This document shows positions 1,346 through 59,572 of a stretch of 64,000 nucleotides of DNA, piece by piece (position 1 is the stretch's first letter; each line of letters starts with the position of its first letter). The stretch is from Heterodontus francisci (lineage: Eukaryota): assembly GCF_036365525.1 (NCBI RefSeq), contig NC_090373.1:119713909-119777908 (forward strand), read 5' to 3'. The notes below the pieces were generated by a model. The model did not search any database. It saw only the letters and a list, made by a program, of their open reading frames with translations, and was not told the DNA's origin. Both the position numbers and the translations under genes were made by a program.

Positions 1346-1346
1346 A

Positions 1347-1595: not shown

Positions 1596-1597
1596 TT

Positions 1598-1964: not shown

Positions 1965-2085
1965 AATGCTGCTTACTCCATTTTCCTGCATTACAACAGT
2001 GATTACACTTCAAAAAGTACGTCATTGGCTGTATAGCACTTTGAGACATCGGTGGTCATGAAAGGTGCTATATTAATGCAAGTTT
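1965..2085 (+). mobile_element. DeuSINE (SacSINE1-like) 3' fragment
   Basis: TTACAACAGTGATTACACTTCAAAAAGTAC..GAAAGGTGCTATATTAATGCAAGT matches the 3' end of the full copy at 29309-29761. Confidence 0.75.
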
Positions 2086-2834: not shown

Positions 2835-2869
2835 GCACTAACATTTTTGACAACAATGGAAATTCAAAA
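2835..2869 (+). CDS. CIB4: CIB-family (CIB4-like) calcium- and integrin-binding protein, coding exon 2 (ALTFLTTMEIQ)
   Basis: tttctgcAG acceptor, 35-nt exon, GTAAGA donor. The peptide matches the CIB xLTFLTxxEI motif. The phase-2 end joins the 9432 exon in frame. Confidence 0.8.
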
Positions 2870-3855
2870 GTAAGAATGTTTATTTATAATGCTGCTTTAT
2901 ATTTTTTGTTGCATATGCATATTTTTCTTTGCTGTACTTTTTATGATTCCATACCAGCAAGGAAAAATGATTAAAGTATCATTCCAGATGATGAGCTAGC
3001 ACTAGCACAGGTACAATGGTACAGTGTCAACTTCTCTGATTTGAACTCATGAACCATACATAAATTAAATAGCTATCGCTTCAGCCATTTATCAATTCAT
3101 TAGTGGCCTACAATGATTGTACGTTGTAAATTTTGTAATCTGTAAAACAATTTTATGTTGCTGCGTCTTTGGATTTATGAACTAGATTTGCATGTAAACC
3201 AAGAAACTTCCTTGAAGGTCACCTGCATTGCTTTTTCGTCAACTGTAGCCCTGTCATGATGTTATAGCCACATTAAAAAGAAAAACTCCTGAAGCTGTGT
3301 TGCTTAATCTATTTTCTGATTTTCCATCCATTTGATGTAGGAATTCTACAAAAGATTATAGAAAAATATGGCAAAATTAAAAGAGCCTTGAAGTAATATG
3401 GAAGGAATTAATAAAAACTTTAAAAGTATTAATAAATTAAACAAAGGTAAATAACAAAAATGAGAATCCAGGGTACTAAAATAAAATCATTTTACAAAAA
3501 TTGGGATATCGAGAAAAGATCGATTAAATGGAGTAGAAATTGGAGTATAAATTAATTCAAAGGCAACTTTAAAAATAAAGCAAACTATGTGAATGGAATA
3601 GTACATTAAAAAGGCAGGATTACAAAAATGGACAAAAACAGAAAATAAACAGAACAAGGACCTGGAACTTCCACCATAACAAATACCACTTACTTCCACC
3701 TCCATAACATTGCATGCCTTTACCCCTACTTCAGCCCATCTTTTATTGAAATCTTTATACATTTTCCTTTGGCAACTCCAGACTTCATTACTCTAACACT
3801 CTTCTAACCATTCGACTCTGTAAACTTAATTCAAAACTCTGCTGCCCATACCCAG

Positions 3856-4925
3856 CAGCATGGGCAAGGGAAATTCCTGCTGATTACCACCTACCGCTGC
3901 CTCGTCAGCTGAGGAATCAGTACTCCTCCATGTTGAACAGCACTTGGAGGAAGCACTGAGGGTGGCAAGGGTGCAGAATGTACTCTGGGTGGGGGATTTC
4001 AATGTCCATCACCAAGAATGGCTCAAAAGCATCACTACTGACCAAGCTGGCTGAGCCCTAAAGGACAGAGCTGGTAGACTGGGTCTCCAGCAGATGGTGA
4101 GGGAACCAACAAGAGGAAAAAGCATACTTGACCTCATCCTCACCAATCTGCCTGCCGTAGTTGCATCTCTCCATGACAGTATTGATAGGAGTGACCACCG
4201 CACAGACCTTGTGGAGATGATGTCCTGTCTTCACATTGAGAATACCCTCCATCGTGTTGTGTGGCACTACCACCCCGCTAAATGGGGTAGATTTCGAACA
4301 GATCTAGCAATGCCGAACTGGGCATCCATGAGGTGCTGTGGGCCATCATCAGCAGCAGCATAATTGTACTCAATCACAATCTGTAACCTCATGGCCCGGC
4401 ATATCCCCCACTCTATCATTACCATCAAGCCGGGGGATCAACCCTGGTTCAATGAAGAGTGCAGGAAGGCATGCCAGGAGCAGCACCAGGCATACCTCAA
4501 AATGAGGTGTCAACCTGGTGAAGCTACAATCCAGGACTACTTGCATGCCAAACAGCATAAGCAGCATGCGATAGACAGAGCTATGCGATCCCACAACCAA
4601 TGGATCAGATCTAAGCTCTGAAGTCTTGCCACATTCACACAGTGAATGCTGGAGGACAATTAAAAAACAAACTGGAGGAGGTGGCTCCACAAATATCTCC
4701 ATCCTCAATGATGGGCATCCCAGCACATCAGTGCAAAAGATAAGGTTGAAGCATTTGCAACAATTTTCAGCCAGAAGTGTCGAGTGGATTATCCATCTCG
4801 GCTTCATCCTGAAGTTCCCAGCATCACAGATACCAGTCTTCAGCATCACAGTTGCCAGTCTTCAATCAATTCAATTCACTCTGTGCGATATCAAGAAACA
4901 ACTGAAGGCACTGGATACTGCAAAG
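3856..4925 (+). mobile_element. Fragment of the tRNA-headed APE-RT LINE family (APE to pre-RT)
   Basis: Reads WVGDFN, EPTRGKSILDLILTN, SDH, PWFNEEC, LKALDTAK. Colinear with the copies at 33860-37228 and 42689-45862. Confidence 0.9.
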
Positions 4926-5962
4926 GAAAGAAGTTCCAGGATTTTGACCCAGCGACAGTGAGGAAACGGTGATATAGTTCCAAGTCAGGATGGTGTGTGG
5001 CCTGGAGGGGAACTTGCAGGTGGTGGTGTTCCCACGTATCTGCTGCCCTTGTCTTTTTAGGTGGTAGAGGCCGCAGGTTTGGAAGGTGCTGCTTGAGTAG
5101 CCTTGGTGCATTGCTGCAGTGCATCTTATAGATGGTACACACTGCTGCCACAGTGCTTCGGTGGTGGAGGGAGTGAATGTTTGTAGATAGGGTGCCAATC
5201 AAGCGGGCTGCTTTGTCCTGGATGGTGTCGAGCTTCTTGAGTGTTGTTGGAGCTGCACCCATCCAGGCAAGTGGAGAGTATTCCATCACACTCCTGACTT
5301 GTGCCTTGTAGATGGTGGACAGGCTTTGGGGAGTCAGGAGGTGAGTTACTCACCACAGGAATCCTAGCCTTTGGCCTGCTTGTGTAGCCATGGTATTTAA
5401 ATGGCTACTCCAGTTCAGTTTCTGGTCAATGGTAGCCCCTAGGATGTTGATAGTGGGGGATTCAGCAATGGTAATGCCATTGAATGTCAAGGGGAGATGG
5501 TTAAATTCTCTCTTGTTTGAGGTGGTCATTGCCTGGCACTTGTGTGACGCGAATGTTACTTGCTACTTATCAGCCAAAGCCTGGATATTGTCCAGGTCTT
5601 GCTGCATTTCTACACGGTCTGCTTCAGTATCTGAAGAGTTGCGAATGGTGCGGAATATTGTGCAATCATCAGCAAACATCCCCACTTCTGACCTTATGAT
5701 TGAAGGAATGTCATTGATGAAGCAGCTGAAGATGGTTGGGCCCAGGACACTACCCTGAGGAACTCCTGCAGTGATGTCCTGGAGCTCAGATGATTGACCT
5801 CCAACAACCACAACCATCTTCGTTTGGGCTAGGTATGACTCCAACCAGCGGAGGGTTTTCCCCCTGATTCCCATTGACCTCAGTTTTGCTAGGGCTCCTT
5901 GATGCCATACTCGGTCAGATGCTGCCTTGATGTCAAGGGCAGTCACTCTCACCTCACCTCTT
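4926..5962 (-). mobile_element. Fragment of the same LINE family (RT C-terminal half), inverted relative to 3856-4925
   Basis: Reads RVTALDIKAA, QGSVLGPTIFSCFIND, FADD, EYSPLAW; near-identical to 34010-35045. Confidence 0.9.
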
Positions 5963-7321
5963 GTGTGAACCTTGAGGACTGTGAGGCCCTGGAAGGAGAC
6001 AACTCATCGGTGGAGAAGCAGGAGGTAAGAGAGGAGGAGGTGGAGGAGGATAACACTGAACAGAGAGGTGCCCCTGCTGCATGATGAGTTGGCCTCCTCC
6101 TGCCATCCTTTAGGAAGGGGATTTCCCTACTTTCCCTCATGGCCTCCAGCATTAGATCCAGGTCAGCATCGATGAAGCCCCTAGTGCCAGGCCTCCAATT
6201 CCCCTATGACATCTCGCTTCCCTCTGATGCTGTGGAAGGCAGCTCTCTCTCTCTCTTAGATTGAATGGCCTTCTCCTGCTCCTATTTCTTATGTTCTAAG
6301 CAGCCTCAGTGATGACTACAGTAGGAATCTGCATGAACCCCAAACTTGATCTGACCCACTGCCATTTTCAATCCCTCTGGCTCTAAGTGGAAGTCTCCAT
6401 GCCAGTTAAGGACTTACCCATTTGAGAATTGCAATCTGAATCAGTTTCCCACAGGAGGTGGGTTTCTGACCCAAAACCAGACCCGGTTTCTTGTTCCCAC
6501 CTACATAATAAAAATCCAGTCCCTTATCTTTCTTGGCATATTGGCCTCCAGTCCTATGCCAGGTCTTAACTGAGCCGGGAAGTGGAAATTCCTGGTAAAG
6601 AGAATCTCTGTGGAATTTGCCTTGTAAGGAGAAATCTTTAGTTCTGTTGTTTATGTGGCCAACCAGAAAATCTCAAAAACAGCAGGGACCCTGCCTGCAA
6701 TTTTCCAATGCATTCCGGCAGAGTTACGGCAGTGAAAGCCCCAAAGAAATTTGGAGCCATTAAACTCCACAGTTTACCATACTATAAAGAATTTTAAAAT
6801 AAATTAGAACATTTTTCTTTTAATAGAAATAGACAAGTATTTCCAAATTTTAAGATTGGTTTCATATATTTCTCTTTTATGCTTTGCTTTCTTTATTGAC
6901 TTGCTGTTCATCACAGCTACTTTAATGTCTCTGCAAACCCTGCAAACTATAACCCATATTTCCTTATCTCAGCAAATCCTCTTCCAAACTGTTTCTTGGT
7001 TTGTTTGTTATTGCCTGTCAATATATGTCATATGTGCTTCACACAAACCTGCTTTTCTATTCTCCATTGTTCTTACTTTATTTCACCAGGCCAAGCATTC
7101 TCTGCCCCCTAGTGGTTCAAATTTCACATTGGTTAATTGGGTTACCATAGCAGGAATCAGCCTAAAGTATAACATGAGTAATTAAACCAAAGTCTGTAGC
7201 ACAGATTATTCTATGTTAACCCTGTACAAGGTGAGTTTTGTAACCATACTGTGAAACAGGAGATACATGTTTTCGTGTATATACCTTTCCCCTCAATCTG
7301 GCCTGTGTTGTATAATTGATT

Positions 7322-7682
7322 ATTAGATTAGATTAGATTAGAGATACAGCACTGAAACAGGCCCTTCGGCCCACCGAGTCTGTGCCGAACATCAACCACC
7401 CATTTTATACTAATCCTACACTAATCCCATATTCCCAACAAACATCCCCACCTATCCCTATATTTCCCTACCACCTACCTATACTCGTGACAATTTATAA
7501 TGGCCAATTTACCTATCAACCTGCAAGTCTTTTGGCTTGTGGGAGGAAACCGGAGCACCCGGAGAAAACCCACGCAGACACAGGGAGAACTTGCAAACTC
7601 CACACAGGCAGTACCTGGAATCGAACCCGGGTCCCTGGAGCTGTGAGGCTGCGGTGCTAACCACTGCGCCACTGTGCCGCCC
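7322..7682 (-). mobile_element. V-SINE (HE1-like), full length
   Basis: The reverse strand shows A box TGGCGCAGTGG, B box GGTTCGATTCC, V-domain (TGTGTGGAGTTTGC..GGGTGCTCCGGTTTCCTCCCAC), a CR1-like 3' tail and a (CTAAT)n end. Confidence 0.92.
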
Positions 7683-18585: not shown

Positions 18586-18906
18586 TAGAGATACAGTACT
18601 GAAACAGGCCCTTCGGCCCACCGAGTCTGTACCGACCATCAACCACCCATTTATACTAATCCTACATTAATCCCATATTCCCTACCACATTCCCACCTTC
18701 CCTCAATTCTCCTACCACCTACCTACACTAAGGGCAATTTTTACAATGGCCAATTTACCTAACAACTTGCAAGTCTTCGGCTGTGGGAGGAAACTCACGC
18801 AGTCACAGGGAGAACTTGCAAACTCTGCACAGACAGTATACAGAATTGAACCCGGGTCGCTGGAGATGTGAGGCTGCAGTGCTAACCACTGCATCATTGT
18901 GCCGCC
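18586..18906 (-). mobile_element. V-SINE (HE1-like)
   Basis: Homologous to 7322-7682, with a small internal deletion. Confidence 0.88.
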
Positions 18907-19399
18907 TGTTCCACTAAGACGTCACAGTCTGTGACGTTCAGGCAGCTGCCAGGACAAAAGATGGCGCTGCTTAAATAATCACACAAAGGCAACATAACCC
19001 ATGACAGCACACAATGGCTGGAGAAAGCGAGCGGGTGAAGCAAGGAGCGAGCGGCTGGGTGGAGAGCGCGGGGAGGGGGGGTGGGTGGAGAGAGCGGGCG
19101 GCACGGGGTGGGGGGGTGATAGAGAGCGGGCTGGGGGGGAGAGTGTGGGCGGGAGGGGGCGAGGAGGAGAGCGCAGCCGCCACCACCAAGTTCTTTGGCC
19201 GCGCTCTCCCCGCTTCCCCGCATTACGCAATGATGTCATCTGCACATGTGCCAACCAGTCCTGGCAATACAGAATGCTGCGCACGCGCAGAGAGCCAAAG
19301 CCCGTTTGCACATGTGCGCAGCTTGGCGCAGTCTGATGACGTCAGCGGCCGGCTGCATTGTTAAGAATCACTTTGTTCACTCAATGTTCCTCACCAACG

Positions 19400-19626
19400 T
19401 TTAGTTTAGAGATACAGCACTGAAACAGGCCCTTCGGCCCACTGAGTCTGTGCCGACCATCAACCACCCATTTATACTAATCCTACACTAATTCCATATT
19501 CCTACCACATCCCCACCTGTCCCTATATTTTCCCTACCACCTACCTATACTAGGGGCAATTTATAATGGCCAATTAACCTATCAACCAGCAAGTCTTTGA
19601 CATGTGGGAGGAAACCGGAGCACCCA
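19400..19626 (-). mobile_element. V-SINE (HE1-like), 5'-truncated
   Basis: 3' two-thirds of the V-SINE with a (TAAAC)n tail. Confidence 0.85.
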
Positions 19627-33859: not shown

Positions 33860-36800
33860 TTTTTTTTTTTATTCATTCATGGGATGTGAGCGACGCCTGC
33901 CAGGCCAGCATTTATTGCCCATCCCTAATTGCCCTTGAGAAGGTAGTGCTGAGCTGCCTTCTTGAACCGCTGCAGTCCATGTGAGGTAGGTACACCCACA
34001 GTGCTGTTAGGAAGGGAGTTCCAGGATTTTGACCCAGCGACAGCGAAGGAACGGCGATATAGTTCCAAGTCAGGGTGGTGTGTGACTTGGAGGGGAACTT
34101 GCAGGTGGTGGTGTTCCCATGCATTTGCTGCCCTTGTCCTTCTAGTTGGTAGAGGTCACGGGTTTGGAAGGTGCTGTCGAAGGAGCCTTGGTGCATTGCT
34201 GCAGTGCATCTTGTAGATGGTACACGCTGCTGCCACTGTGCGTCGGTGGTGCAGGGAGTGAATGTTTGTAGATGGGATGCCAATCAAGCGGGCTGCTTTG
34301 TCCTGGATGGTGTCGAGCTTCTTGAGTGTTGTTGGAGCTGCACCCATCCAGGAAAGTGGAGAGTATTCCATCACACTCCTGACTTGTGCCTTGTAGATGG
34401 TGGACAGGCTTTGGGAGTCAGGAGGTGAGTTACTCGCCTCAGGATTCCAAGCTTCTGACCTGCTCTTGTAGCCACGGTATTTATATGGCTACTCCAGTTC
34501 AGTTTCTGGTCAATGGAAGCCTCTAAGATGTTGATAGTGGGGGATTCAGCGATGGTAATGCTGTTGAATGTCAAGGGGAGAAGGTTAGATTCTCTCTTCT
34601 TGGAGATGGTCATTGCCTGGCACTTGTCTGGCGCGAATGTTACTTGCCACTTATCAGCCCAAGCCTGGATATTGTCCAGGTCTTGCTGCATTTCTACATG
34701 GACTGCTTCAGTATCTGAGGAGTCACGAATGGTGCTGAACATTGTGCAATCATCAGCGAACATCCCCACTTCTGACCTGATGATTGAAGGAAGGTCATTG
34801 ATGAAGCAGCTGAAGATGGTTGGGCCCAGGACACTACCCTGAGGAACTCCTGCAGTGATGTCCTGGAGCTGAGATGATTGACCTCCAACAACCACAGCCA
34901 TCTTCCTTTGGGCTAGGTATGACTCTAGCCAGCGGAGGGTTTTCCCCCTGATTCCCATTGACCTCAGTTTTGCTAGGGCTCCTTGATGCCATACCCAGTC
35001 AAATGCTGCCTTGATGTCAAGGGCAGTCACTCTCGCCTCACCTCTTGAGTTCAGCTCTTTTTTACATGTTTGAACCAAGGCTGTAATGAGGTCAGGAGCT
35101 GAGTGGCCCTGGCGGAACTCAAACTGAGCGTCACTGAGCAGGTTATTGCAAAGCAAGTGTCGCTTGATGGCACTGTTGATGACACCTTCCATCACTTTAC
35201 TGATGATTGAGAGTAGGCTGATGGGGCAGTAATTGGCCGGGTTGGACTTGTCCTGCTTTTTGTGTACAGGACATACCTGGGCAGTGTTCCACATTGCAGG
35301 GTAGATGCCGGTGTTGTAGCTGTACTGGAAAAGCTTGGATAGGGGCGCGGCAAGTTCTGGAGCACAGGTCTTCAGTACTATTGCCGGAATATTGTCAGGG
35401 CTCATAGCTTTTGCAGTATCCAGTGCCTTCAGTCGTTTCTTGATATCACGTGGAGTGAATCGAATTGGCTGAAGTCTGGCATCTGTGATGCTTGGGACTT
35501 CAGGAGGAGGCCGAGATGGATCATCAACCCGGCACTTCTGGCTGAAGGTTGTTGCAAATGCTTCAGCCTTATCTTTCGCACTGATGTGCTGGGCTCCCCC
35601 ATCATTGAGGATGGGGATATTTGTGGAGCCACCTCCTCCAGTTAGTTGCTAGCTCTGCTGGACAGATGCTGCCAGATCTGCTGAGTGGTTCCAGCATTTC
35701 TTGTTTTTATTTCAGATTTCCAGCATCTGCAGTATTTTGCTTTTATCCTCCAGTTAGTTGTTTAATTGTCCACCACCATTCACGGCTGGATTTGGTAGGA
35801 CTGCAGAGCTTAGATCTGATCCGTTGGTTATGGGATCGCTTAGCTCTGTCTATCGTATGCTGCTTATGCAGTTTGGCATGCAGATAGTCCTCGGTTGTAG
35901 CTTCACCAGGTTGACACCTCATTTTGAGGTATGCCTGATGCTGCTCCTGGCATGCCCTCCTGCACTCTTCATTGAACCAGGGTTGGTCTCCTGGCTTGAT
36001 GGTAATGTTAGAGTGGGGGATATGCCGGGCCATGAGGTTACAGATTGTGGTTGAGAACAATTCTGCTGCTGCTGATGGCCCACATTGCCTCATGGATGTC
36101 CAGTTTTGCATTGCTAGATCTGTTCGAAATCTATCCCATTTAGTACGGTGATAGTGTCACACAACATGACGGACAGTATCCTCAATGTGAAGGCAGCACT
36201 CCGTCTCCACAAGGACTGTGCGGTGGTCACTCCTACCAATACTGTCATGGACAGAAGCATGTGCGTCAGGCAGATTGGTGAGGACGAGGTCAAGTATGTT
36301 TTTCCCTCGTGTTGGTTCCCCCACCACCTGCCGCAGACCCAGTCTAGCAGCTATGTCCTTTAGGACTTGGCCAGCTCGGTCAGTAGTGGTGCTACCGAGC
36401 CACTCTTGGTGATGGACATTGAAGTCTCCCACCCAGAGTACATTTTGTGCCCTTGCCACCCTCAGTGCTTCCTCCAAGTGGTGTTCAACATGGTGGAGTA
36501 CTGAGTCATCAGCTGAGGGAGGGCGGTAGGTGGTAATCAGTAGGAGGTTACTTGCCCATGTTTGCCCTGATGCCATGAGACTTCATGGGGTCCGGAGTTG
36601 ATGTTGAGGACTCCTAGGGCAACTCCCTATTGTATACCACTGTCCCGCCACCTCTGGTGGGTCTGTCCTGCCGGTGGGATAGGACATACCCGGGGATGGT
36701 GATGGCAGTGTCTGGGACATTGTCTGTAAGGTATGATTCCGTGAGTATGACTGTCAGGCTGTTGCTTGACTAGTCTGTGGGACAGCTCTCCCAACTTTGG

Positions 36801-37228
36801 CACGAGCCTCCAGATGTTAGTAAGGAGGACTTTGCAGGGTCGACAGGGCTGGGTTTGCCGTTGTCGTTTCCAGTGTCTAGGTCGATGCCGGGCGGTTCAT
36901 CCGGTTTCATTCCTTTTTATTGACTTCGTCGCGATTAGGTACAACTGAGTGGCTTGCTAGGCCATTTCAGAGGGCATGTAAGAGTTAACCACGTTGCTGT
37001 GGGTCTGGAGTCACATGTAGGCCAGACCAGGTAAGGACAGCAGATTTCCTTCCCTAAAGGACATTAGTGAACCAGATGAGTTTTTACAACAATTGACAAT
37101 GGTTTCATGGCCATCATTAGACTAGCTTTTTAATTCCAGATTTATTAATTAAATTCAAATTCCACCTTCTACTGTGGTGGGATTCGAACCCATGTCCCCA
37201 GAGAGACACCCTGGGTCTCTGGGTTACT
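33860..37228 (-). mobile_element. tRNA-headed single-ORF APE-RT non-LTR retrotransposon, copy 1 (lacks ~30 nt of the 5' end)
   Basis: B box GGTTCGAATCCC at 37179-37190, then a SINE-like core. APE starts at ~36836 (KVLLTNIW..ILTESYL..RGGGTVVY). RT ORF 34371-35405 is followed by a WNSLP C-terminus, short 3' UTR and poly(A). Confidence 0.92.
35649..35745 (+). mobile_element. 97-bp Penelope pLTR 3' fragment inserted in the LINE
   Basis: 15-bp TSD TCCTCCAGTTAGTTG (35634-35648, 35746-35760); the sequence matches 47905-47983. Confidence 0.88.
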
Positions 37229-40302: not shown

Positions 40303-41525
40303 AAACAAAATACTGTGGATGCTGGAAATCTGAAATAAAAACAGAAACTGCCAGAAATACTGAACAAGTCAGGCAGCATCTAAAGAGAGGAAACTGAGCT
40401 AACGTTTCAGGTCTGTGACCTTTCATCAGAACTGGGAAAAGTTAGAAATGTAATAGGTATTAAGCAGGTGAAAGGGGGAGGGTGGAGAGAGATTAAATGA
40501 CAAAAGAGTTCATGGTACTAAGCCAAAGGGAGTGGTAATGAGACATGTAAAGAATCAGAAAATGTCTCTGGATGAGGTGTGAATGGCAGGATAATGAATA
40601 GCTGCCATCTGAAGGCAATGAAAAGGGAAAAGAAACGAGAGAAAGAAAAGCAAACCAACAAAGAAAAAGGAAATAAAATAGGAGCAGAGGTTATGATGTA
40701 AAATTGAACTCTGTTGATTCCAGAAGGCTAAGAAGTGCCCAATAGGAAGATAAGGTGCTGTTCCTCAAGCTTGTATTGAACTTGGTTGGAACACTGCAGG
40801 AGGCCGAGGACAAAAAGGTCAGAGTGGGAGCAAAGTGCAGAATTAAAATGACAGGCAATTGGAAGGTCTGGATTATGCTTGCGGACTGAATGGAGGTGTT
40901 CCGCAAAGTGGTCATCAAGTCTATATTTGGTCTCACAATGTAGAGGAGACCATATCATAAGCAGGAAATACAGTATATTAAATTGAAAGAAGCACAAGTA
41001 AATCACTGTTACACCTGGAAGGAGTGTTTGGAGCCTTGGACAGTGAAAAGGGAGGAGGTAAGAAGGAAAGGTGTTGCATCTTCTGCGCTTGCATGGAAAG
41101 GTGCCGTAGGCAGAGAAGAAGGTTTTCGGGGTGATTGAGAAATGGCCCAGGGTGTCGTGGAGGGAATGGTCTCTTCAGAATTCTGAAAGGAGAGAGGAAG
41201 AGAAGATGTGTTTGGTGGTGGCATCATGCTGGAGGTGGTGAAAATGGCGAGGATGATCAGTTGAATACCGAGGCTGGTGAGTGGAAGCTGCAGACAAGGA
41301 GATCTTTATCGTGGTTCCAAGAAGGTGGGGAAGGAGAGAGAGCATAAGTGCGTAAAATGGAATGGACTCCGTAAACCATAGTGTGAGGGGTGTCAGCCTC
41401 AGCTGAGGAAAAGGGAAGACATATTGGAAGCTCTAGTATGGAAGGTTACATCATCAGAACAGATGTGACAAAGGCGGAGAAATTGCGAGAATGGAATTAA
41501 TGTCCTGACAGGAAGCAGTTTGTGA
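40303..41525 (-). mobile_element. Penelope-like element fragment (RT thumb, GIY-YIG, pLTR)
   Basis: The reverse strand reads IPFSQFLRLCHICSD and NLIYCISC..LYIVETKYRLDDHFAEH..PIACHFN. The pLTR carries a hammerhead motif. Confidence 0.85.
40397..40433 (-). ncRNA. Minimal type I hammerhead ribozyme motif (PLE pLTR)
   Basis: AGTT-CTGATGA-A-AGGTC-ACA-GACCT-GAAA-CGTT-AGCT. Confidence 0.75.
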
Positions 41526-42313
41526 GGACATGCATTCAAGACCTGATACTGGTTGCAATCAAATGAGGCCTGATCAGAAAAATAGCTTGTGTTTCCGACT
41601 GACTGCATCTGACAGGCAGATCAGACGCACTGCCGACCAATCTATGCTACACAGAAATATCTACCCTTATCCTGTGGAACACCAGGCTGAATTTTCAGGC
41701 CTCCTGCTTAATGGAATCAGGATGGTAGCATCAGGAATATGGTGGGTCATTATCTAATGCCATATTGCCCTCTCACTATACCAATGGCAATTAGTATAGC
41801 TAATTCAGGTGCTAGGCGCATTTAACATGCTAATAGGCAAGCTATGACATACATAGGACTCTGCCATTTTTGGTTTTAACCTTGATTGGTATCGTTTGGC
41901 AGTCTGCCAAAAAGGATCCTAAAGATAGGTTCCTCCAGGTTCCACAAAACCTGCATGATCCACTGTCGCTTCACTTCTCTCCCCCATCATCTGAGATTGG
42001 GGCCCCTCCTTCTTAACTACCCTCTTGCCATTCTGCCAAAATTGTGATGGACTGGTCCCACTTGGATGCCACAGGACTCTCAAACTACAGCTGCAGCCTA
42101 CTGGCAAAATGCACCAGTCCTCATGCTGCAACTCCCAGACAACTGACTAGTGCATTTTGCCAGGCAGCTGCCTGAAGTCCACTTAGGGGGAGAATCCACC
42201 CCATACTTACTGCCTTTATCATTTGTGGTGAACACTTCTGAAAATATAAAATAACAACAGAAGATGCTGGAAATACTCAGCAGGTCTGGCAGCATTTGTG
42301 GAAAGAGAGACAG

Positions 42314-42350
42314 AGTTAACGTTTCAGGTCTGTGACCTTTCATCAGAACT
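42314..42350 (-). ncRNA. Minimal type I hammerhead ribozyme motif (intact core)
   Basis: AGTT-CTGATGA-A-AGGTC-ACA-GACCT-GAAA-CGTT-AACT: stem I AGTT/AACT, stem II AGGTC/GACCT, palindromic stem III, GUU triplet. Confidence 0.8.
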
Positions 42351-42688
42351 GGCAAAGGTTAGAAATGTAATAGGCTTTGCACAAGTGAAAAGGGGGAGGG
42401 GGAAGAAGAACTAAAGAGGACCGAGGGCAGGAGAGATTAAATGACAAAGATGTTACGGAACAAAGGCAAAGGGAGTGCTAATAGTTGTATTAAAAGTCAA
42501 AGCATTAGTCCAGAGAGACTGTTAATGGTAGAATAATGAACAGCTCTGTCCAAAAGCAAAAACCTGAAAAACAAGTTTAAGATAATCCATGGTTAAAAAA
42601 AATTAAAAAGGGCAGTCATGCTCTGAAATTGTTGAACTCAATGTTGAGTCAACAAGGAGAAAGAGTGCCTAATCAGAAGATGAGATGC

Positions 42689-45600
42689 TTTTTTTTATTC
42701 AATCATGGGATGTGGGCGTCACTAGTTAGGCCAGCATTTATTGCCCATCCCTAATTGCCCTTGAGAAGGTGGTGGTGAGCTGCCATCCTGAACCGCTGGA
42801 GTCCATATAGGGTAGGTTCACCAACAGTGCTGTTCAGGAGGGAGTTCTAGGATTTTGACCCAGCGACAGTGAAGGAGCGGCGATATAGTTCCAAGTCAGG
42901 ATGGTGTGTGGCTTAGAGGGGAACTTGCTGGTGGTGGTGTTCCCAAGCATCAGCTGCCCTTGTCCTTCTAGGTGGTAGCGGTCGTGGGTTTGGAAGGTGC
43001 TGTCTCAGGAGCCTTGGTGTGTTTCTCCAGTGCATCTTGAAGATGGTACACACTGCTGCCACTGTGTATCGCTAGTGGAGGAAGTGAATGTTGTGGATGG
43101 GGTGCCAATCAAGCGAGCTGCTTTGTCCTGGATGGTGTTGAGCTTCTTGAGTGTTGTTGGAGCTGTAACCATCCAGGCAACTGGAGAATATTCCACCATA
43201 CTCCTGACTTGCACCTTGTAGATGGTGGACAGGCTTTGGGGAGTCAGGACGTGAGTTACTTGCTGCAGGATTCCTAGCCTCTGGCCTGCTCTTGTACTCA
43301 TTATTTATATGGCTACTCCAGTTCAGTTTCAGGTCAATGATAACCCTCCAGGATGTTGATAGCGTGGGATTCAGGGATTGCAATGCCACTGAATGTCAAG
43401 GGGAGATGGTTAGATTCTCTCTTGTTGGAGATGGCCATTGCCTGGCACTTGTGTGGCGCGAATGTTACTTGCTACTTATCAGCCCAAGCCTAGCTATTGT
43501 CCAGGTCTTGCTGCATTTCTACACGGACTGCTTCAGTATCTGAGAAATTGCGAATGGTGCTGAATATTGTGCAATCATCAGTGAACATCCCCACTTCTGA
43601 CGTTATGATTGAAGGAAGGTCATTGATGAAGCAGCTGAAGATGGTTGGACTTAGGATACTACCCTGAGGATCTCCTGCAGTGATGTCCTGGAGCTGAGAC
43701 GATTGACCTCCAACAACCACAACCACCTTCCTTTGCGTTAGGTACGATTCCAACCAGCGGAGAGTTTTCCCCTTGATTCCCATTGACTCCAGCTTTGCTA
43801 GGGCACCTTGATGTCATACACGATCAAATGCAGCATTGATGTCAAGGGCAGTCACTCTCACCTCACCTCTTGAGTTCAGCTCTTTTGTCCATGTTTGAAC
43901 TAAGGCTGTAATGAGGTCAGGAGCTGAGTGGCCTTGGCAGAACCCAAACTGAGCATCACTGAGCTAAACAAGTGCCGCATGACAGCACTGTTGACGACAC
44001 CTTCCATTACTTTACTTTGATTGAGAGTAGACTGAAGGGGCGGTATTTGGCTAGGTTGGACTTGTATACAAAAAGCAGGACATACCTGAGCAATTTTCCA
44101 CATTGCTGGGTAGATGCCAATGTTGTAGCTGTACTGGAACAGCTTGGCTAGGTGCACAGCAAGTTCTGGAGCACAGAACTATTGCCGGAATGTTGTCAGG
44201 GCCCATAGCCTTTGCAGTATCCAGTGCCTTCAGTCGTTGCTTGATATCACGTGGAGTGAATTGAATTGGCTGAAGACTGGCATCTGTGATGCTAAGGACT
44301 TCAGGAGGAGACCGAGGTGGATCATCCGCTCGGCACTTCTGGCTGACGATTATTGCAAATGCTTCAGCCTTGTCTTTTGCACTGATGTGCTGGGCTCCCC
44401 CATTATTGAGGATGGGAATATTTGTGAAGCCACCTTCTCCAGTTAGTTGTTTAATTGTCCACCCTCATTCATGACTGAGTGTGGCAGGACTGCAGAGCTT
44501 AGGTCTGATCTGTTGGTTATGGGATTGCTTAGCTCTGTCTATCGCATGCTGCTTATGCTGTTTGGCACGCAAGTAGTCCTCGGTTGTAGCTTCACCAGAA
44601 TGACACCTGATTTTGAGGTATGCCTGGTGCTGCTCCTGGAATGCCCTTCTGTACTCTTCATTGAACCAGAGTTGGTCCCCCAGCTTGATGGTAATGGTAG
44701 AGTGGGGGATATGCCGGGTCATGAGGTTACAGATTGTGGTTGAGTACAATTCTGCTGTTGCTGATGGCCCACAGCGCCTCATGGGTGCCCAGTTTTGCAT
44801 TGCTTGATCTGTTCAAAATCTATTCCATTTAGTACGGTGGTGGTGTCAAACAACACGATGGAGGGTATCCTCAATGTGAAGATGGGACTTTGTTTCCACA
44901 AGGACTGTGAAGTGGTCACTCCTACCAATATTGTCATGGACAGATGCATCTGTGGCAGGCAGATTGGTGACAACGAGGTGAAGTATATTTTTCTCTCTTG
45001 TTGGTTCCCTCACCACCTGCCGCAGACCCAGTCTAGCAGCTATGTCCTTTAGGACTTGGCCAGCTCGGTCAGTAGTGGTGCTACCAAGTCACTCGGTGAT
45101 GGACGTGGATGTCTACCACCCAGAGTACATTCTGTACCCTTGCCACCCTCAGTGCTTCCTCCAAGTGCTGTTCCCCATGGAGTACTGATTCATCAGCTGA
45201 GGCGGGGGCAGTAGGTGGTAATCAGCAGGAGGTTTCCTTGCCCATGTTTGACCTGATGCCATGAGACGTCATGAGGTCTGGAGCCGATGTTGAGGACTCC
45301 CAGGGCAACTATCTCCCAACCACTGTGCCACCACCTCAGCAAGGTCTTTCCTGCCGGTGGGACAGGACATACCTGAGGATGCTGATGGTGGTGTCTGGGA
45401 CATTGTAAGATATGATTCGGTGAGTATGACTGTGTCAGGCTGTTGCTTAACTAGTCTGTGGCACAAGCCACCAGATGTTGGTAAGGAGGACTTTGCAGAG
45501 TCGACAGGGCTGTGTTTGCTGTCGTAATTTCCGGTGCCTAGGTCAATGCCAGGTGGTCCATCTGGTTCAATTCCTTATTGACTTTGTAGCGGTTAGATAC

Positions 45601-45862
45601 AACTGAGTGGCTTGCTCGGCCATTTCAGAGAGCATTAAGAGTCAACCACATTGCTGTGCGTCTGGTGTCACATGTAGGCCAGACCAGATAAGGACAGCAG
45701 ATTCCTTCCCTCGACAATGGCCTTCATTCGACTAGCTTCTAATTCCAGATTTATTAATTTAATTCAAATTCTATCTTCTATTTTGGGATGCGAACCCATG
45801 ACCCCAGAGCAATACTCTGGGTTTCTGGGTTACTAGTCCAGTGACAATACCACTACGCCACC
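42689..45862 (-). mobile_element. tRNA-headed single-ORF APE-RT non-LTR retrotransposon, copy 2 (full length), nested in the Penelope element
   Basis: A box TGGCGTAGTGG (45850-45860), B box GGTTCGCATCCC (45785-45796), core, degenerate APE-RT and poly(A). Host PLE sequence stops at 42688 and resumes at ~45861. Confidence 0.92.
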
Positions 45863-48542
45863 TCAAGTTTGCATTGAGGTTTATTGGAACACTGCAGCAG
45901 CCCAAGGACAGAAATGTTGGCATGGGAGCAGGGCGGTGAATTAAAATGGCAAGCAACAAGAACCTCAGGGTCGTGCTTGCAGACTGAGTGGAAGTATTCC
46001 GCAAAGTGGTCACCCAATCTGCATTTGGTCTCCTCCATGTAGAGCTGACCACATTGTAAGCATCGAATACAGTATACTAAATTGAAAGAAGTACACGTAA
46101 ATCACTATTTCACCTGGATGGAGTGTTTGGGGCCTTTACTGATAAGGAGAGAGGAGGTAAAAGGGTAAGTATTACACCTCCTGTGATTGCATGGGGAAGT
46201 GCCGTGGGAAGGGGTCGAGGTGTAGTGGACCAGGGTGTCATGGAGGGAACGATTCCTTTGGAATGCTGACAGCAGAGGGGAGGGTAAGATGTGTTTGGTG
46301 GTGGCGGAAATGACAGAGGAGGATCCTTTGGATGTGAAGGCTGGTGGGGTAGGAAGTGAGGACAAGGGGAACCCTGTTCCGGTCCTGGGAGGGAGGGGAA
46401 GAGGTGAAGAAAGTGCGGGAAATGAGTCAGCCAGAAGTTGAAAAGTTGAGGAAGGGAAGGGAAGTGTCTGAGATGAACCATGCGAAGGTGAGAGAAGGGT
46501 GAAAATTGGAAGCAAAGTTGATGACATTTTCCAGTTTGGGCAGGAGCAGGAAACAGCACCGATGCATTCATCAATATACCAGAAAAAGAGTTGAGGGAGG
46601 GTCCTGAATAGGACTGGAACAAGGAATATTTGAAATACTGCACAAAAAGACAGGCATAACTGGGACCTAAAATCAGGAGGTGAGTGGAGTTAAGGAGAAG
46701 TTGTTCATTGTGAGAACAAGTTCAGCCAGGTGGAGGAATGTGGTGGTGGATTGGGACTGGTTGAGCCTCTGTTCAAGCAAGTAGCAGAGAACCCTCAGAC
46801 TGTCCTGGTAGGGGATGGAGGTATGGACAGAACGGATGTCCATTGTGAAGAGGAGGCAGTTAGGGCCAGCAAACTGGAAATTGTCGAAATGATGTGGGGC
46901 ATCAGAAGAGTCATGGATGTAGGTGGAAGAGACTGGACCAGGGGAGAAAAGTCAAGATAGGAAGAAATAAGTTCCATGGGGCAGGAACAGGCTGAAATAA
47001 TGGGTCTACTGGGACAGTCCTGTTTGTGGAGTTTGGGAAGGAGGTAAAAGCAGGCTCTCTGGGGTTGCGGGACAATGAGGTGGGTCGCGGTAGAGGTAAG
47101 ACCCTGCTTCCTGTAAGGACTCAATTCCATTCCCCCAGTTTCTCAATCTATGATGCATTTGTTCTGACGATGCTACCTTCCACAACAATGCTTCTGATAT
47201 GTCGTCCTTTCTCCTCAACTGAGGATTCCCCCCCCTCCCCCACCAACTGTGGTTGACAGGCCCCTCAACCGTGTCCAACCATTTCCCACACTTCTGCTCT
47301 CACCCCTTCCCCTCCCTCCCAGAACCACAACAGGGTTTCCCTTGTCCTCACTTTCCACCCACCAGCCTTCACATCCAAAGAATCATCTCTACCATTTCTG
47401 CCACTTCGAGCGTGATACCACCACCAAACACATCTTCCCCTCCCCTCTGTCATTTCTGTCCTTGGCCTGCTGCAGTGTTCCAGTGAGCCTCAACACAAGC
47501 TCAAGGAACAGTACCTCATCTTCCGATTAGGCACTCTACAGCCTTCTAGACTCAACATTGACTTCAACAATTTCAGAGCATTGCTACCTTTTTTTTATCT
47601 TATTTTATTTTTTAACCATGGATTATCTTAAACTTTCAGGTTTTTGTTTTTGGATAGAGCTGTTCATTATTCTGCCACTAACGCTCTCTCTGGATTAATG
47701 CAGCTGTTCGCACTCGCTTTGCTTTTGTTCTTTGACATCTTTGTCATTTAATCTCTCCTGCCCTCTGTTCTATCACACACCTTCCCTTTAGTTCTTCTAC
47801 CCCTCTCCCCCTTTTCACTTGTTCAAAGCCTATTACATTTCTAACTTTGTCAGTTCTGATAAAAGGTCGCAGACCTGAAATGTTAATTCTGTTTCTCACT
47901 CCACATATGCTGCCAGACCTGCTGAGTATTTCCAGCACTTTGTTTTTATTTCAGATTTCCAGCATTTGCAGTATATAGCTTTTACTTTTGAAAGTATAAT
48001 GTTGAAAATTCAAGATAAATATACACCCTCAAAAAAAATCTAATGTTAATTATTAATTACATAAACAGTCCCCAAGATGGATCAATAAAGTGATTAAAAT
48101 ATGGATAAGAAATTAGGAACTCTACAAGGCAAAAGAGGGGCAGAAATGCATTAATGAGGTTATGTATTGCAATATGAGCATTTGGGTACTAGAGGGATGA
48201 ACTTTGTCATGAAAATATCAATGCTGTAACACCAGTTAATAACTTGGAATATAATTAGATTCTAATGATCAAAATGTTAGATCTAATGCTTTGCCAAATT
48301 GAAAATAGGTTCAATGATTAAAAAATGAATGTGAGTTCTAGTTTATCTTATAATTTTTCAAGAAACAAATGAATAAATTGTAACTGCCATTCATTCACTG
48401 TCTAAATTATTAGGATCTCCAATTAACTTTTTTATATTTTACCTATCTGCCAAGTTTTAAGAATAATGACATTGTGTGTGCAAGCTAAATAATTCAGAAA
48501 GTTGTAAAATGTAACTGTATTTTTCATTTTGATCCCTAACAG

Positions 48543-48631: not shown

Positions 48632-48959
48632 GTAAGTCATATGGAAAATAAGCTTATTTTCAAGGAAACAAAATCTTTGGCTTACCAAATAGAATATATA
48701 TTATTTTCATACTTTTTAAAGAACCAGTAAATGAGCATTTATTATTTTCCCTGTAACACTGCCACAGTGTCCCCGTTAGCAGGCTGAATGCATATTTCTG
48801 ACCACAGCATTTTCTGAAACTGATTCACCCTAAATTTGAAAACAAATTGTCTTAAAGTTACCTAGACAATTTGCTCACCCTACTTGCCAACCATTAAAAA
48901 TCCTACTAAAAGAGGCTGGTGGAGTTGATGAGTATACAAGGCTAATAGAAGTGATGGCA

Positions 48960-50500
48960 ACAAATGACTGAAGGCATTGGATATAGCAAAGATTATGGGC
49001 CCGGACAACATTCCAGCTATAGTATTCTGTGCTCCAGAACTAGCTGATACTCTAGCCGAGCTGTTCTGGAACAGCTACGACACTGGTATCTACCAGACAA
49101 TGTGGAAAATTGCCCAGGTATGTCCTATCTATAAAAACAGGACAAATCCAATTTGGCCAATTACCGCCCCATCCGTCTACTCTTGATCATCAGCAAAGTG
49201 ATGGAAGGTGTCATTGACGGTGCTATCAAGTGGAATTTATTCAGCAATAACCTGCCCCACCAATGCTCAGTTTGGGTTCCAGAAGGGCCACTCGGTTTCA
49301 GACCTCATTACAGTCATGTCCAAACATGGGCAAAAGAGCTGAATTCAACAGGTGAGAGTGACTACCCTTAATATCAAGATAGTATTTGATCAAGTCAGCA
49401 TCTAGAAGCCCTAGCAAAATTGAAGTCAATGGGAATCGGGGGAAAACTTTCCACTGGTTAGAGCCATACTTAGCACAAAGGATGATGATTGTGGTTGTTG
49501 TCTTAGCCCCAGGACATTGCTGCAAGAGTTCCTCAGGGTAGTCTCCTAGGCCCAACCATCTTCAGTTGCTTCATCAATGACCTTCCCTCCATCATTAGGT
49601 CAGAAGAGGGGATGTTCACTAATGATTGCAGTGCTCAGTACCATTCACAATTCCTGTGATACTGAAGCAGTCCATGGCCTTCTACAGCAAGACCTGGACA
49701 ACATTCAGGCTTGGCCTGATAAGTGGCAAGTGAGATTCATGCCATACCAGTGCCATGCAATGACCATCTTCAACAAGAGAGAATCTGACCACCTTCCCTT
49801 GACATTCAGTGGCATTGCCAAATGCCCTATCATCAACATCCTAGGGGTTACCATTGACCAGAAACTTAACTGGACCAGACATATAAATACTGTGGCTACG
49901 AAAGAAAGTCAGAGGCTGAGAATTCTGTGGCGAGTAACTCACCACCTGACTCCCCAAAGCCTATCCGCTATCTACAAAGCACAAGTTACGAATGTGATGG
50001 AACACTCTCCACTTGCCTGGATGAGTACAGCTCCCAACAACTCAAGAAGCTCAACAACATCCAGGACAAAGCAGTCCACTTGATTGCCACGCCATCCACC
50101 ACTTTAAACATTCACCCACTCCACCACCAGCGCACCATAGCTGCAGTGTGTACCGTGTACAAAATGTACTGCCACAACTCATCAAGGTTGTTTTGATAGC
50201 ACTTCCCAAACCCATGACCTCTACCACCTAGAAGGACAAGGACAGCAGGTGCGTGGAAACACCACCACCTCCAAGTCCCCCTTAAGTCACACGCCATTCA
50301 ACTTGGAAATATATCACAATTCCCTCATCGTTGCTGCATCAAACTCCTAGAACTCCCTACTTAACAGCACTGTAGAAGTACCTTCACCATACAGACTGCA
50401 GTGGTTCAAGCAGGTGGCTCACCACGATCTTCTCAAGGGCAACAAGGAATGTTCAATTAATGCTGCCCTTGTCAGCAATGTCCACTTGAACGAATAACTA
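48960..50500 (+). mobile_element. Older, 5'-truncated copy of the tRNA-headed LINE family (RT to 3' end)
   Basis: Reads GPDNIPA, NYRPI, QQDLDNIQAW, IDQKLNW, and ends with the family 3' motif CTTCTCAAGGGCAA. Confidence 0.85.
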
Positions 50501-50706
50501 AAAATCTTCAATTGATCTTTTTCCCTGTTAACATACATTTATCATTTTTGTCACTATTTATGTACAGTATAAGATATCCCTTGCTGTAATGTTGTAATGT
50601 CCTGTGTCATAAGGAATTATCAGGTCCCCGTGAGAGGAATTTGACAAAAAATGAGTTTCTGGTGTGTTTCTCTTCTGTTTCTAATAATACTATCTTTTTT
50701 TTTTAG

Positions 50707-54990: not shown

Positions 54991-55085
54991 CATTTCTGTT
55001 TATTCTTCTTCTGCTGTTCAAGACAAATCAACTCCAAAACTAAAGAAAGATGTCTGTTGAGACCAAATATTTATTTTGCAACTTT

Positions 55086-55415
55086 TAGCACCGCAGCCTC
55101 ACAGCTCCAGCGACCCGGGTTCAATTCTGGGTACTGCCTGTGTGGAGTTTGCAAGTTCTCCCTGTGTCTGTGTGGGTTTCCTCCGGGTGCTCCGGTTTCC
55201 TCCCACATGCCAAAGACTTGCAGGTTGATAGGTTAATTGGCCATTATAAATTGCCCCTAGTATAGGTAGGAGGGAGGGAAATATAGGGACAGGTGGGGAT
55301 GTGGTAGGGACATGGGATTAGTGTAGGATTAGTATAAATGGGTGGTTGATGGTCGGCACAGACTCGGTGGGCTGAAGGACCTGTTTCAGTGCTGTATCTC
55401 TAAACTAAACTAAAC
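55086..55415 (+). mobile_element. V-SINE (HE1-like)
   Basis: B box GGTTCAATTC, V-domain and (TAAAC)n tail. Confidence 0.9.
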
Positions 55416-56132: not shown

Positions 56133-56484
56133 ATGATAATCCATGACAAAAACGGAAGTAGAGAGCGAATTTTGGAAGCAGTTCATTGAAATACTTCAGA
56201 CTTTCCAATTGTTCAGTGGATAACCGCTGACAGAATATGTGCGAGAAATAACTGTGGAAGGGGTGACACATATTGTGCAGCAGTATTGATATCTGATAAT
56301 AATAAGCAACCTATTTTAGTACTAGCGGCAGCCTAAAGGATCGATAGGCAAATAAACGCGGAGAGGGAGTAATAAGAGCGAGAGAACATTGAGCACTATG
56401 AGGTCAGAGAAGTGGATAGATACGGTCCAGTCGTGAAAAGGTTGACAGATTCATTGTTTTCAGAGGGGAAATGAGGTTGTGAAG

Positions 56485-57406
56485 ATGGGTGATTGGAATT
56501 TGCTAGGAAGCATTTTGGAAGAGGTGCACGTTCACTCAACCATCATGGGGAAGATCTGGTTGACAATCCTGTTCATTTTCAGGATGTTGGTTCTTGGGGT
56601 GGCTGCTGAAGATGTTTGGGATGATGAACAAGTTGAATTCATCTGCAACACAGAGCAACCAGGCTGCAGGAACGTTTGCTACGATAAGGCTTTCCCCATT
56701 TCTCTCATAAGGTACTGGGTCCTACAAATTATTTTCGTCTCTTCGCCGTCCTTGGTTTACATGGGTCACGCACTCTATCGGCTAAGAGCACTCGAGAAAG
56801 AAAGGCAGCGGAAGAAAGTCCACCTCCGAACCGAACTGGAAGACATTGAGCCGGCGATGGAGGAGCACAAAAGGTTGGAAAAAGAACTGAGAAAGTTGGA
56901 AGAGCAGCGCAAGGTAAATAAGGCACCTCTCCGGGGTTCACTGTTACGCACTTACGTCCTCCAGATACTGACCAGATTAGTGATGGAAATTGGTTTCATG
57001 GTGGGTCAATATCTCCTGTACGGATTTCGACTTGATCCTCTCTACAAGTGCCTACGATCACCCTGCCCCAATACTGTGGATTGTTTCGTTTCCAGGCCCA
57101 CAGAAAAGACTATTTTCATCGTCTTCATGCTCAGCATAGCTGCTTTCTCCTTGTTTTTGAATATACTTGAAATCATTCACTTAGGAATCAGAAAAATCAA
57201 ACAGGGACTTTACCAGGAGTCAGAGCTGAGCATCTACAAATCGAAGAAGAGCTCAGTTGTGCAGCAAGTTTGCATTATGACCAACTCCTCACCTCACAAA
57301 CTTGTCCCTATGGCGCTTCGTAGTTATAAGCTTTTACCAGAACAGCAGGGATATCCAGGAAACCTTCCTATCTTGCTGACTTCGACGACGCTTAGCATGA
57401 TTAAAG
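56485..57406 (+). CDS. GJA10: Gap junction alpha-10 (Cx57/Cx62-type connexin), coding exon 1: N-terminus, four TM helices, proximal tail
   Basis: [15 protein letters not shown]; extracellular loops [12 protein letters not shown] and [20 protein letters not shown]; GJA9/10-type [17 protein letters not shown] tttcAG acceptor at 56462-56463 precedes the ATG; AAG/GTGAGG donor (phase 1). Confidence 0.93.
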
Positions 57407-57421
57407 GTGAGGCCTGTATTA

Positions 57422-57773
57422 TTTAGTTTAGTTTTAGTTTAGTTTAGAGATCCAGCACTGAAACAGGCCCTTCGGCCCACCGAGTCTGTGCCGACCATCA
57501 ACCACCCATTTATACTAATCCTACACTAATCCCATATTCCTACCACATCCCCACCTGTCCCTATATATTTCCCTACCAACTACCTACAGTAGGGGCAATT
57601 TATAATGGCCAATTAACCTGTCAACCTGCAAGTCTTTGGCATGTGGGAGGAAACCGGAGCACCCGGAGGAAACCCACGCAGACACAGGGAGAACTTGCAA
57701 ACTCCGCACAGGCAGTACCCAGAATCGAACCCGGGTCCCTGGAGCTGTGAGGCTGCGGTGCTAACCACTGCCC
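57422..57773 (-). mobile_element. V-SINE (HE1-like) in the connexin intron
   Basis: Near-identical to the other V-SINE copies; (TAAAC)n tail at the left end. Confidence 0.92.
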
Positions 57774-59572
57774 CATAGAACATAGAAACACCGATTTATT
57801 TTTGTTTCTGCTGCATGAGATATGAAGATCTAAAGAATGTCTTTACACATTAATATTATAATATCAGATATTTGGTTTGAGTCTCCACATCATTCAACTG
57901 GTGAAGCAGTAACCTTTAAACAAATTGTGTAGATTTTTATCACACCTTTTTAGATTTAACATATTTTAAACACTTGTTTTAAAAATGTCTGTAATCATTA
58001 ATGCTTAAATTTTGTTTTGTGCTGATTTAATTGATCTCAGCCAGGACAGTAGTAGACATAATTAGCCTCAGCATCCATAGATTAGAGGAGTGTTGTCCAA
58101 TAGAAATCACTGACAAGTCACAAGCATAGGCTACACTGTTTAGCTACATGCACTCGGTTTAGTAGAAAACATATTACACACAATACAGGCAACTGTACTA
58201 CCTGTGTACATTTACTTAGCAAACATAGAACAACATTCAGTGCAAAACTTTCCAATCTTTCTCTTTCACCATAGCTACATATTCAGGCATGAATTGATCA
58301 GACAATTATGCCTATTACTCATGTTTTATTTACTAATGAAATTGCAATTCACCGCATCTGGATTCCTAATTCACCACATGTGGTTAGTAGCTAATGTATT
58401 GGACAAAACTAGGTTGGAGAATGGAAAGTTGATTATTATACGGAGACTCCTGCTAATAGTGCACATGTTTGGATGTTGATTGCGGTCAGGTCTCACCATA
58501 TTTGAGTAGCCCACTTACATTCATGGATTAAGCTTGCACATGAAGAGTGTCCATCCAGCAAGGAGTCTGCACTTTCAGGAGAGGAAGAGGGAGGTGTGAA
58601 AATTAGCAGAAAACAATGATGGAATGGAAAAAAACAGAGTATGGGGATGCTGTTAACAAGTACTGTACTTACACTGCATACAGCGGTGAGCAAATTTTAG
58701 TGTCAACATATTATGATTTCTTTTTTTAGCAATGCTAGATGCAAAGTGTGAAAATATTCATTCTTGAAATCCTAATAAAGATCATATCTTAATATGCATT
58801 ATAAAAACAGACATTTTTTTTGTTTCCTAATACAATCATTTATTTTTCAAGATGAACTCCAGCTTAATAGAATATCTACTTCCGTAACAGTTTTCCAATC
58901 ACGTGATGAACCAACTTCATTTATTGATCTTCTCTTACTGAAATTGCATTGTAACCACATGATACAGCATTTCAGAACAAATTATAAACTAAAAGAAATG
59001 TATTCAAAAATGAATGGAAAAAGGATGACAATATAAAAACAAGTCTAAACTTATATATTGTGCATGTGGAAATCATAACAAGCATGGAAAGTTGCCTTGT
59101 TACATTGGAGCCTGGACTGACTTAAGCCATTTAAATAAAGCAGCAAATTCAACCTATTTGCTTGATAAATCATCAAATGAACGGTTGATTCGAATTAACC
59201 CACTTCAAATTAAGAGGAGTACACATTATAGCAAAAAAAAAAGATTGAGGTCTTGTCATCTCTATACTTACAACCATCAATCTTTTCAGTATTAACAGCA
59301 TCAAATAAAATTGGATTGATCTGTTTATTAGCAGCATCAGTACTTTTGCCTACAGGTTTGCATGAACTTTGACCAAATATATTGTGACAGTTAAACAGAT
59401 CAACTAGCATGTAAGCATTATAGAGTCATTACATTGCTTCGTGCCATTATAGAATTCCTGTCTAATGAACAGGTACATATTAAATAGAGAATATGTTTAA
59501 TCCATTGCATGCAAGTAAATACATTTAACTGAACTCAGATGAATGCCTAACGTCTTCATTTATGAATTTAAG

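Follow-up and report, generated by a model that had tools for sequence, protein, structure and literature searches.

A tRNA-headed Zenon LINE of sharks and rays, probably transcribed by Pol III

In our study, the genome of Heterodontus francisci was found to contain thousands of 3.3-kb copies of one retrotransposon family, in which a head apparently derived from tRNA-Thr(AGT) ran into a single APE-RT frame of 975 codons. The reading that we favor, with a probability of about two in three, is that of an autonomous LINE of the Zenon type in sharks and rays, which has an internal promoter of tRNA-Thr origin as its own 5' end and a coding RNA made by Pol III. An earlier note on this DNA had proposed a self-sufficient element with a Pol III-type promoter; this was also the best reading after our analysis and was strengthened by the T-run test described below, the promoter being predicted from the sequence. 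SINEs have been defined as Pol III-made and non-coding, and LINEs as Pol II-made and coding (available portions of PMC4494074 and PMC5786205). If the favored reading is true, a vertebrate LINE present in very large numbers would provide a natural messenger made by Pol III, on which translation independent of cap and AUG could be tested directly. A SINE with a conserved body could come straight from a LINE, born in one step by deletion, and the working boundary between LINEs and SINEs would be erased.

The window, which is the whole stretch of 64,000 nucleotides that was analysed, contained two copies of one architecture on the minus strand. Both had been reported in the earlier note, and both were found at the same positions by alignment to the family majority, which was built from 48 full-length copies, is 3,298 nt long, and has a single frame of 975 codons. 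The features of the window were as follows.

42689..45862, minus strand: copy 2, a near full-length but decayed elasmobranch Zenon LINE with a tRNA-type head (nt 9-3297 of the family majority, 88% identity)
45775..45862, minus strand: predicted tRNA-Thr(AGT)-derived head of copy 2 with a 20-nt extra arm (alignment to genomic tRNA-Thr(AGT), shuffles, ARAGORN)
45850..45860, minus strand: A box (type 2 Pol III promoter) of copy 2, recognized by sequence
45786..45796, minus strand: B box of copy 2, recognized by sequence; damaged, with the invariant A changed to C
45600..45774, minus strand: conserved body or 5' UTR of copy 2, common to the short derivative; it has a 47-nt deletion here and is not a Meta-domain
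42751..45599, minus strand: single APE-RT frame of copy 2, broken; the APE starts near 45494
42689..42750, minus strand: 54-nt 3' UTR and poly(A) of copy 2; the SINE derivative has the last ~78 nt as its tail
33860..37228, minus strand: copy 1, 5'-truncated within the head, so that the A box is missing; the B box at 37180-37190 is intact
35649..35745, no strand assigned: later insertion in copy 1, ~95 nt with a ~15-nt duplication, resembling Penelope-end repeats
42238..42688, minus strand: Penelope-like host element, portion downstream of the copy 2 insertion
45863..46424, minus strand: Penelope-like host element, portion upstream of the copy 2 insertion
48951..50504, plus strand: older family member, 5'-truncated, 80% identical to the majority, with 1 T4 run in its 1,525 nt
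3859..5966, both strands: two family fragments joined tail to tail (nt 710-1749 on plus, nt 2109-3151 on minus)

Copy 1 covered nt 37-3298 of the family majority at 96-97% identity. As had been described, the A box was seen in copy 2 only, with the B box 53 nt further on, and a 54-nt 3' UTR and poly(A) closed the element; about 105 nt separated the end of the body from the APE. The A box of copy 2 matches the established A-box consensus. The motif GGTTCG(A/C)ATCCC, which had been given for the B box, was present in both copies, but the C in copy 2 replaces the invariant A, and with the A box of copy 1 lost neither copy of the window possesses a whole promoter. A quoted body motif starting CTGGTTCAC was found in copy 1 but was absent from copy 2, where the 47-nt deletion lies. 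The frames of both copies were broken by stops and frameshifts. Copy 2 had been described as nested in a Penelope element, and the Penelope-like host was indeed found to continue on both sides of the insertion; 4 nt were lost at the site and none were duplicated. The translation of the host around copy 2 contained a pattern which we take to be GIY-YIG-like, and no Pfam match was found for it. The 3' junctions of copy 2 (window 42689) and of another copy, L011 (near 4250), were located at the same base of the Penelope-like element whereas their 5' junctions differed; a local site preference or chance is possible. Pieces similar to the insertion in copy 1 were present at 40303-40381, 42238-42299, and 47903-47984, and the tail-to-tail fragments were joined at 4924 without a 3' end. 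The window also contained a single-exon-like connexin ORF of 326 codons (56446-57426, plus strand; Pfam Connexin, E 3e-97) and five copies of an unrelated tRNA-headed SINE, presumably V-SINE/HE1-like (7309-7681, 18586-18906, 19399-19625, 55085-55414, and 57415-57775).

The extent of the family was counted by exact motif matches in the 6.0-Gb assembly. The body-to-ORF junction motif had 4,406 matches, the body-to-tail junction 4,740, and a mid-body motif 16,683, and the reversed controls had 0. The LINE 3' end motif had 41,908 matches (reversed control 0), so at least 41,908 3' ends are present in the genome and the family is not a curiosity. When a head+APE query was used, the head and the APE occurred together behind a sharp 5' boundary in 39/39 other best-matching copies; the majority base was found in 20-40% of the rows outside this boundary, compared with 60-90+% inside. 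A query with the head alone gave 30 loci, of which 25 continued into the APE, 4 jumped to the 3' end, and 1 was ambiguous. The first 40 junction-motif matches on contig C1 served as a sample, with the flanks ignored. The copies starting at head nt 3-17 numbered 26/40 (24/38 after dropping two duplicates, as one copy accounted for three of the rows), 3 started at nt 32-46, and 11 were cut within the body; 36/40 ran into the ORF and 4/40 jumped to the 3' end, each at a point of its own. No other shared sequence was seen by eye upstream of the head in these 40 copies. The head is almost certainly the family's own 5' end. The earlier note had held that head, ORF, and tail moved as one unit and had set a count of head-APE contiguity as the check; with 39/39 best copies and 4,406 junctions the contiguity is not limited to the window, and a single mobile unit is supported. 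The same junction matches, together with the identical architecture in the consensus of five other species, refute the idea that the window merely holds chance chimeras of a SINE and a truncated LINE, to which we give practically no weight. Target-site duplications of 4 or more nt were detected in only 5/32 copies and measured 4-5 nt. One truncated copy (L226/L227/L228) was located in a three-fold local duplication on C1.

The majority head and the genomic tRNA-Thr(AGT) of L111 were identical at 50/68 aligned bases, and a single insertion of 20 nt lengthened the extra arm. The alignment score was 64, compared with a shuffle maximum of 38-45. Thr(AGT) was called by ARAGORN in 7/39 heads at default and in 20/39 at -ps95. 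As in SINEs, the A box follows the start of the element by about 10 nt. These results support a tRNA-derived head, in agreement with the tRNA-type head of the earlier note. The body, in contrast, had been likened to the MetaSINE core, and this likeness was not found. The published Meta-domain consensus (available supplement of PMC7245038) showed no resemblance to the body by eye, a search of the window for its 22-nt core motif with 3 mismatches allowed gave 0 matches, and the 66-bp Meta-domain which directly follows the head in a MetaSINE was not present. Deu fragments did not resemble the body by eye, the presumed V-SINE-like repeats of the window gave no BLAST match to it, and its motifs were absent from the bivalve and hagfish SINE supplements. 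A stable structure of the body was considered and rejected, as its folding z was about 0, while the head alone reached z -1.9; an Rfam search with the head of L016 gave nothing below E 1.8. In the upstream regions of distant relatives, A and B boxes together were found in 0/40, no BLAST match to the head or body was obtained below E 0.046, and relaxed ARAGORN gave 3/40 weak calls (L119, L183, and L193). In two metagenome relatives, L116 and L117, the region ahead of the ORF had a short repeated motif in common, which may be a small structured RNA.

Pol III terminates at four or more T. A T-run criterion has been applied likewise in PMC4494074 (available portion). The majority sense strand contained 0 runs of 4 or more T in 3,283 nt, compared with 14 runs of A, 13 of C, and 8 of G, and neither TTTVTT nor TTVTTT was present in it; among the full copies, 37/48 had no T4 run. 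The sense strand thus lacks Pol III terminators, which is the condition for read-through by Pol III. TT occurred at 0.72, TTT at 0.29, and TTTT at 0 of the expected number, and runs of A, C, and G showed no such fall. The majority contained 8 TTT where 27.4 were expected (0/400 shuffles), and the ORF contained 4, which are its four TTT codons, where a shuffle of its own codons gave 15.3 (0/1000 as low). With the codon use of the CR1-like element of the window, the ORF would contain 6.7 T4 runs (0/500 with none). Phe made up 1.9%, the lowest among 28 aligned proteins. The copies had 0.077 T4 runs per kb over 156 kb; the control retroelements of the same genome, which we take to be CR1-like, RTE-like, and Penelope from Pfam RT matches or motifs and which are T-richer (24-28% vs 20-21%), small, and partly overlapping, had 4.0-4.6, 6.3, and 4.9, respectively. 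The T4 density climbed from 0.11 to 0.93 per kb with the decay of the copies. Metagenome relatives with a long ORF, which are distant (27-35%), had 8-49 T4 runs in 24/24 (25 tested).

The same family could be autonomous but made by Pol II, from an internal start or by read-through. The head would then be a relic or would mark the 5' end for processing, and the low T would have another cause, such as drift in base composition or a need to avoid splice tracts. The 3' UTR contains AATAAA, and the absence of T4 alone was not significant under a first-order Markov model (expectation 1.7, P 0.17) or under the own-codon shuffle (expectation 2.2, P 0.074). Further, LINEs are generally held to be transcribed by Pol II (PMC5786205), and base composition differs widely between LINE clades (bioRxiv 10.1101/788562), as far as the available portions of these sources go. 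However, the depletion is specific to one strand and to T and grows stronger with run length, three other retroelement types of the same genome are free of it, and the T-runs of the CR1-like element were common to its close copies (5/5, 5/5, and 4/7). In sharks and rays alike the A and B boxes are also retained although the spacer varies, according to a consensus comparison from the available part of PMC13343379, in which the B box was weaker in dogfish and ray. We consider transcription by Pol II unlikely, and we infer that the element is transcribed by Pol III. Pol III was once claimed for L1 too, and a review used the wording 'pol II (or pol III)'.

Under the favored Pol III reading, TFIIIC would bind the A and B boxes, and Pol III would read the full 3.3 kb and terminate where the flanking DNA has its first T-run. 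The resulting RNA, without a cap, would be translated by a non-canonical start, either a non-AUG codon or a frameshift from the overlapping +1 AUG. The APE-RT protein would bind the 3' tail and the copy would be inserted by target-primed reverse transcription, and internal deletions keeping head and tail would produce ready-made SINEs more than once. The more specific proposal, that this Pol III-transcribed autonomous coding retrotransposon has the age of sharks and rays, that its ORF was recoded against oligo(T), and that its uncapped RNA is translated without an AUG, is one that we believe by a narrow balance. The A box, the B box, and the absence of T4 were found together in 15/48 full copies. 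Directly before the A-run, 3-5 T were present in 9/39 distinct tails (e.g., L082, L108, L195, L201, and L222); slippage might account for this, or a terminator to which poly(A) was then added.

In the 975-codon frame of the family majority, no in-frame AUG was found before the endonuclease, and the first in-frame Met was codon 285, past the APE. The AUG at nt 354 lies in the +1 frame and opens an overlapping ORF of 46 codons; it was present in the lead consensus of all five elasmobranch species (available part of PMC13343379). A non-AUG start or a frameshift would be needed to translate the long frame, judging from its sequence. Stop-codon read-through as the start was rejected, with TAG found in 60/72 readable copies but a TAG-ATG distance, by eye, of 45, 48, or 49 nt across species, so that the reading frame is not conserved between them. 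The RNA of R2 is uncapped and without a conserved AUG; a ribozyme releases it from a Pol I co-transcript. Human L1 ORF2 is able to start without AUG, and L1 is Pol II-made without a tRNA head.

The lack of an in-frame AUG fits an uncapped RNA, yet it is also the main support for an untranslated one, in which the element would be a Pol III-made long SINE that is mobilized in trans by another LINE. The longest ORF2 in three other species was 584-747 aa (PMC13343379 Table S3, available rows), which agrees with such a view. Against it, the frame was open for 975 codons in the majority and for 935 stop-free codons in one natural copy (L096), with Pfam matches to Exo_endo_phos and RVT_1. The stretch before the APE was Arg-rich, like the N-termini of several relatives, and no separate helper LINE with the same tail was found among the sampled loci. 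Common non-CpG differences in the APE were 13 synonymous and 12 non-synonymous. Without selection, a ratio of roughly 1:3 is expected. This synonymous excess shows that purifying selection has acted on the ORF, and an untranslated long SINE is very improbable. A frameshifted subfamily mobilized in trans was also considered, since most hits of the head+APE query had a 2-nt deletion in the APE (39/83 rows, column patterns). This candidate was rejected: no such deletion was called in the 40 motif-picked copies, in some of which the motif was unreadable, and its carriers were scattered over the tree, so it is a recurrent mutation enriched by the query. The protein matches containing pieces of the element were gene models of sharks and rays; several public shark models (P0001, P0007, P0009, and P0010) included pieces of the element ORF at 72-86% identity, which are probably mis-called exons. 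No relative of the element was found in viral contigs.

By its sequence, the family is the published elasmobranch Zenon. Stuart et al. (2026; PMC13343379) reported Zenon in five elasmobranchs, coelacanth, and hagfish, and in the available portions all Zenon elements lack ORF1 and end in poly(A); according to its authors, the elasmobranch Zenons were absent from repeat repositories before. The single APE-RT ORF without ORF1 and the poly(A) were both found here. The missing ORF1 had been regarded as unusual, but as both are Zenon traits, neither it nor the poly(A) is a sign of SINE capture. The elasmobranch elements (CarCar, RhiTyp, ScyCan, SquAca, and HypSab) are likewise 3.2-3.3 kb long, and over the first 400 nt, on which the comparison was judged, they matched this family by eye. 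The same head and body were seen by eye in those 400 nt in seven elasmobranch consensus rows from the five species, whereas neither was seen in three hagfish and coelacanth rows. In the RT tree, L096 fell in a clade of 26 rows (100/99) together with L119, a lepidopteran-like element that has 72% identity to a protein of Spodoptera; the CR1-like RT of the window fell outside the Zenon clade, on a long branch in a tree without Repbase references. Zenon belongs to the CR1 group, and the RT of the element grouped with Zenon and apart from canonical CR1. The note had added that an existing family entry would remove the novelty. The family is indeed published, but the available text of PMC13343379 contained no mention of tRNA, promoter, or Pol III and its supplement none of tRNA, and the lack of T-runs, the missing AUG, and the SINE derivative were not described in those portions. 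No tRNA-headed or Pol III-made autonomous LINE was met in the titles and abstract openings of the literature, although Repbase, Dfam, SINEBase, or subscription sources may hold a description. The family is known, and its surprising anatomy seems to have gone unremarked.

The element was further compared with described systems. Lepidopteran Zenon (available portions of PMC6740152) is similarly a ~3.3 kb single-ORF LINE of the same RT clade with poly(A), and yields derivatives that join 5' and 3' parts by deletion. However, its derivative Persaeus shows neither homology to a tRNA nor a Pol III promoter, no such head was seen by eye at the 5' ends in the supplement, and L119, the lepidopteran-like element, contains 10 T4 runs as well as an AUG ahead of the APE. 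With tRNA-derived SINEs (SINE2) the element shares an A/B-box head at the very 5' end, a LINE-type tail, and the absence of an internal oligo(T) terminator, but it is ten times longer and coding (3.3 kb, 975-codon frame); short and non-coding applies to the ~400-nt derivative and not to the LINE. A Thr-like head is also reported for MetaSINEs (available part of PMC4824008), the body of which differs. SacSINE1 and CmiSINE, with L2 tails and Deu/CORE bodies, and HE1, with a V domain and HER1 tail, are unlike this family according to the descriptions available (PMC5499810; PMC3747384). In the bipartite route of Kojima (2018; PMC5786205, available part) a SINE is made of the 5' and 3' parts of a LINE with an RNA-derived head, as here, but the head is added after the deletion to parts of a Pol II-type parent, whereas the shark parent LINE is already headed.

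A SINE of ~400 nt, made of LINE nt 1-328/330 and the last ~78 nt, was about as common as the LINE junction. Its body-to-tail joint was also present in contig runs of all four other organisms checked, and the element covered all 30 bins in the four runs (contigs only). Among 30 motif-picked bodies, 18 continued into the LINE, 11 into the SINE, and 1 into another deletion form, and a foreign tail was found in 0/30. The heads of young SINEs were 92-94% like the LINE head of this genome, while those of old SINEs were 73-83% identical to it and by eye resembled the dogfish LINE consensus, as available. At least seven other deletion breakpoints were found, in forms including L223, L246, L054, L077, L250, L252, and L262. 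As the body occurred only with the LINE ORF or tail in the 30 sampled, young heads match the LINE of this genome while old ones resemble that of dogfish, and extra breakpoints exist, the observed direction is from LINE to SINE, and deletion within the LINE demonstrably gives rise to short forms.

The event that first brought tRNA, body, and ORF together is older than the split of sharks and rays. An older independent SINE might have taken up the ORF of its partner Zenon in a 5'-truncated form, an origin compatible with the favored reading. The older SINE subfamily exists, the ORF has no AUG of its own, as a truncated capture might, and invertebrate, hagfish, and coelacanth Zenons are without the head. 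Against this, all 30 sampled bodies were tied to the LINE or its deletion forms, the young heads track the LINE of this genome and the old ones resemble that of dogfish, the visible flow runs from LINE to SINE, and direct capture of a tRNA onto the LINE 5' UTR fits equally. The capture by a SINE is a possibility that we hold to be slightly less likely than not. Two copies, L051 and L052, shared the junction 345/3144 and may represent a small second short family.
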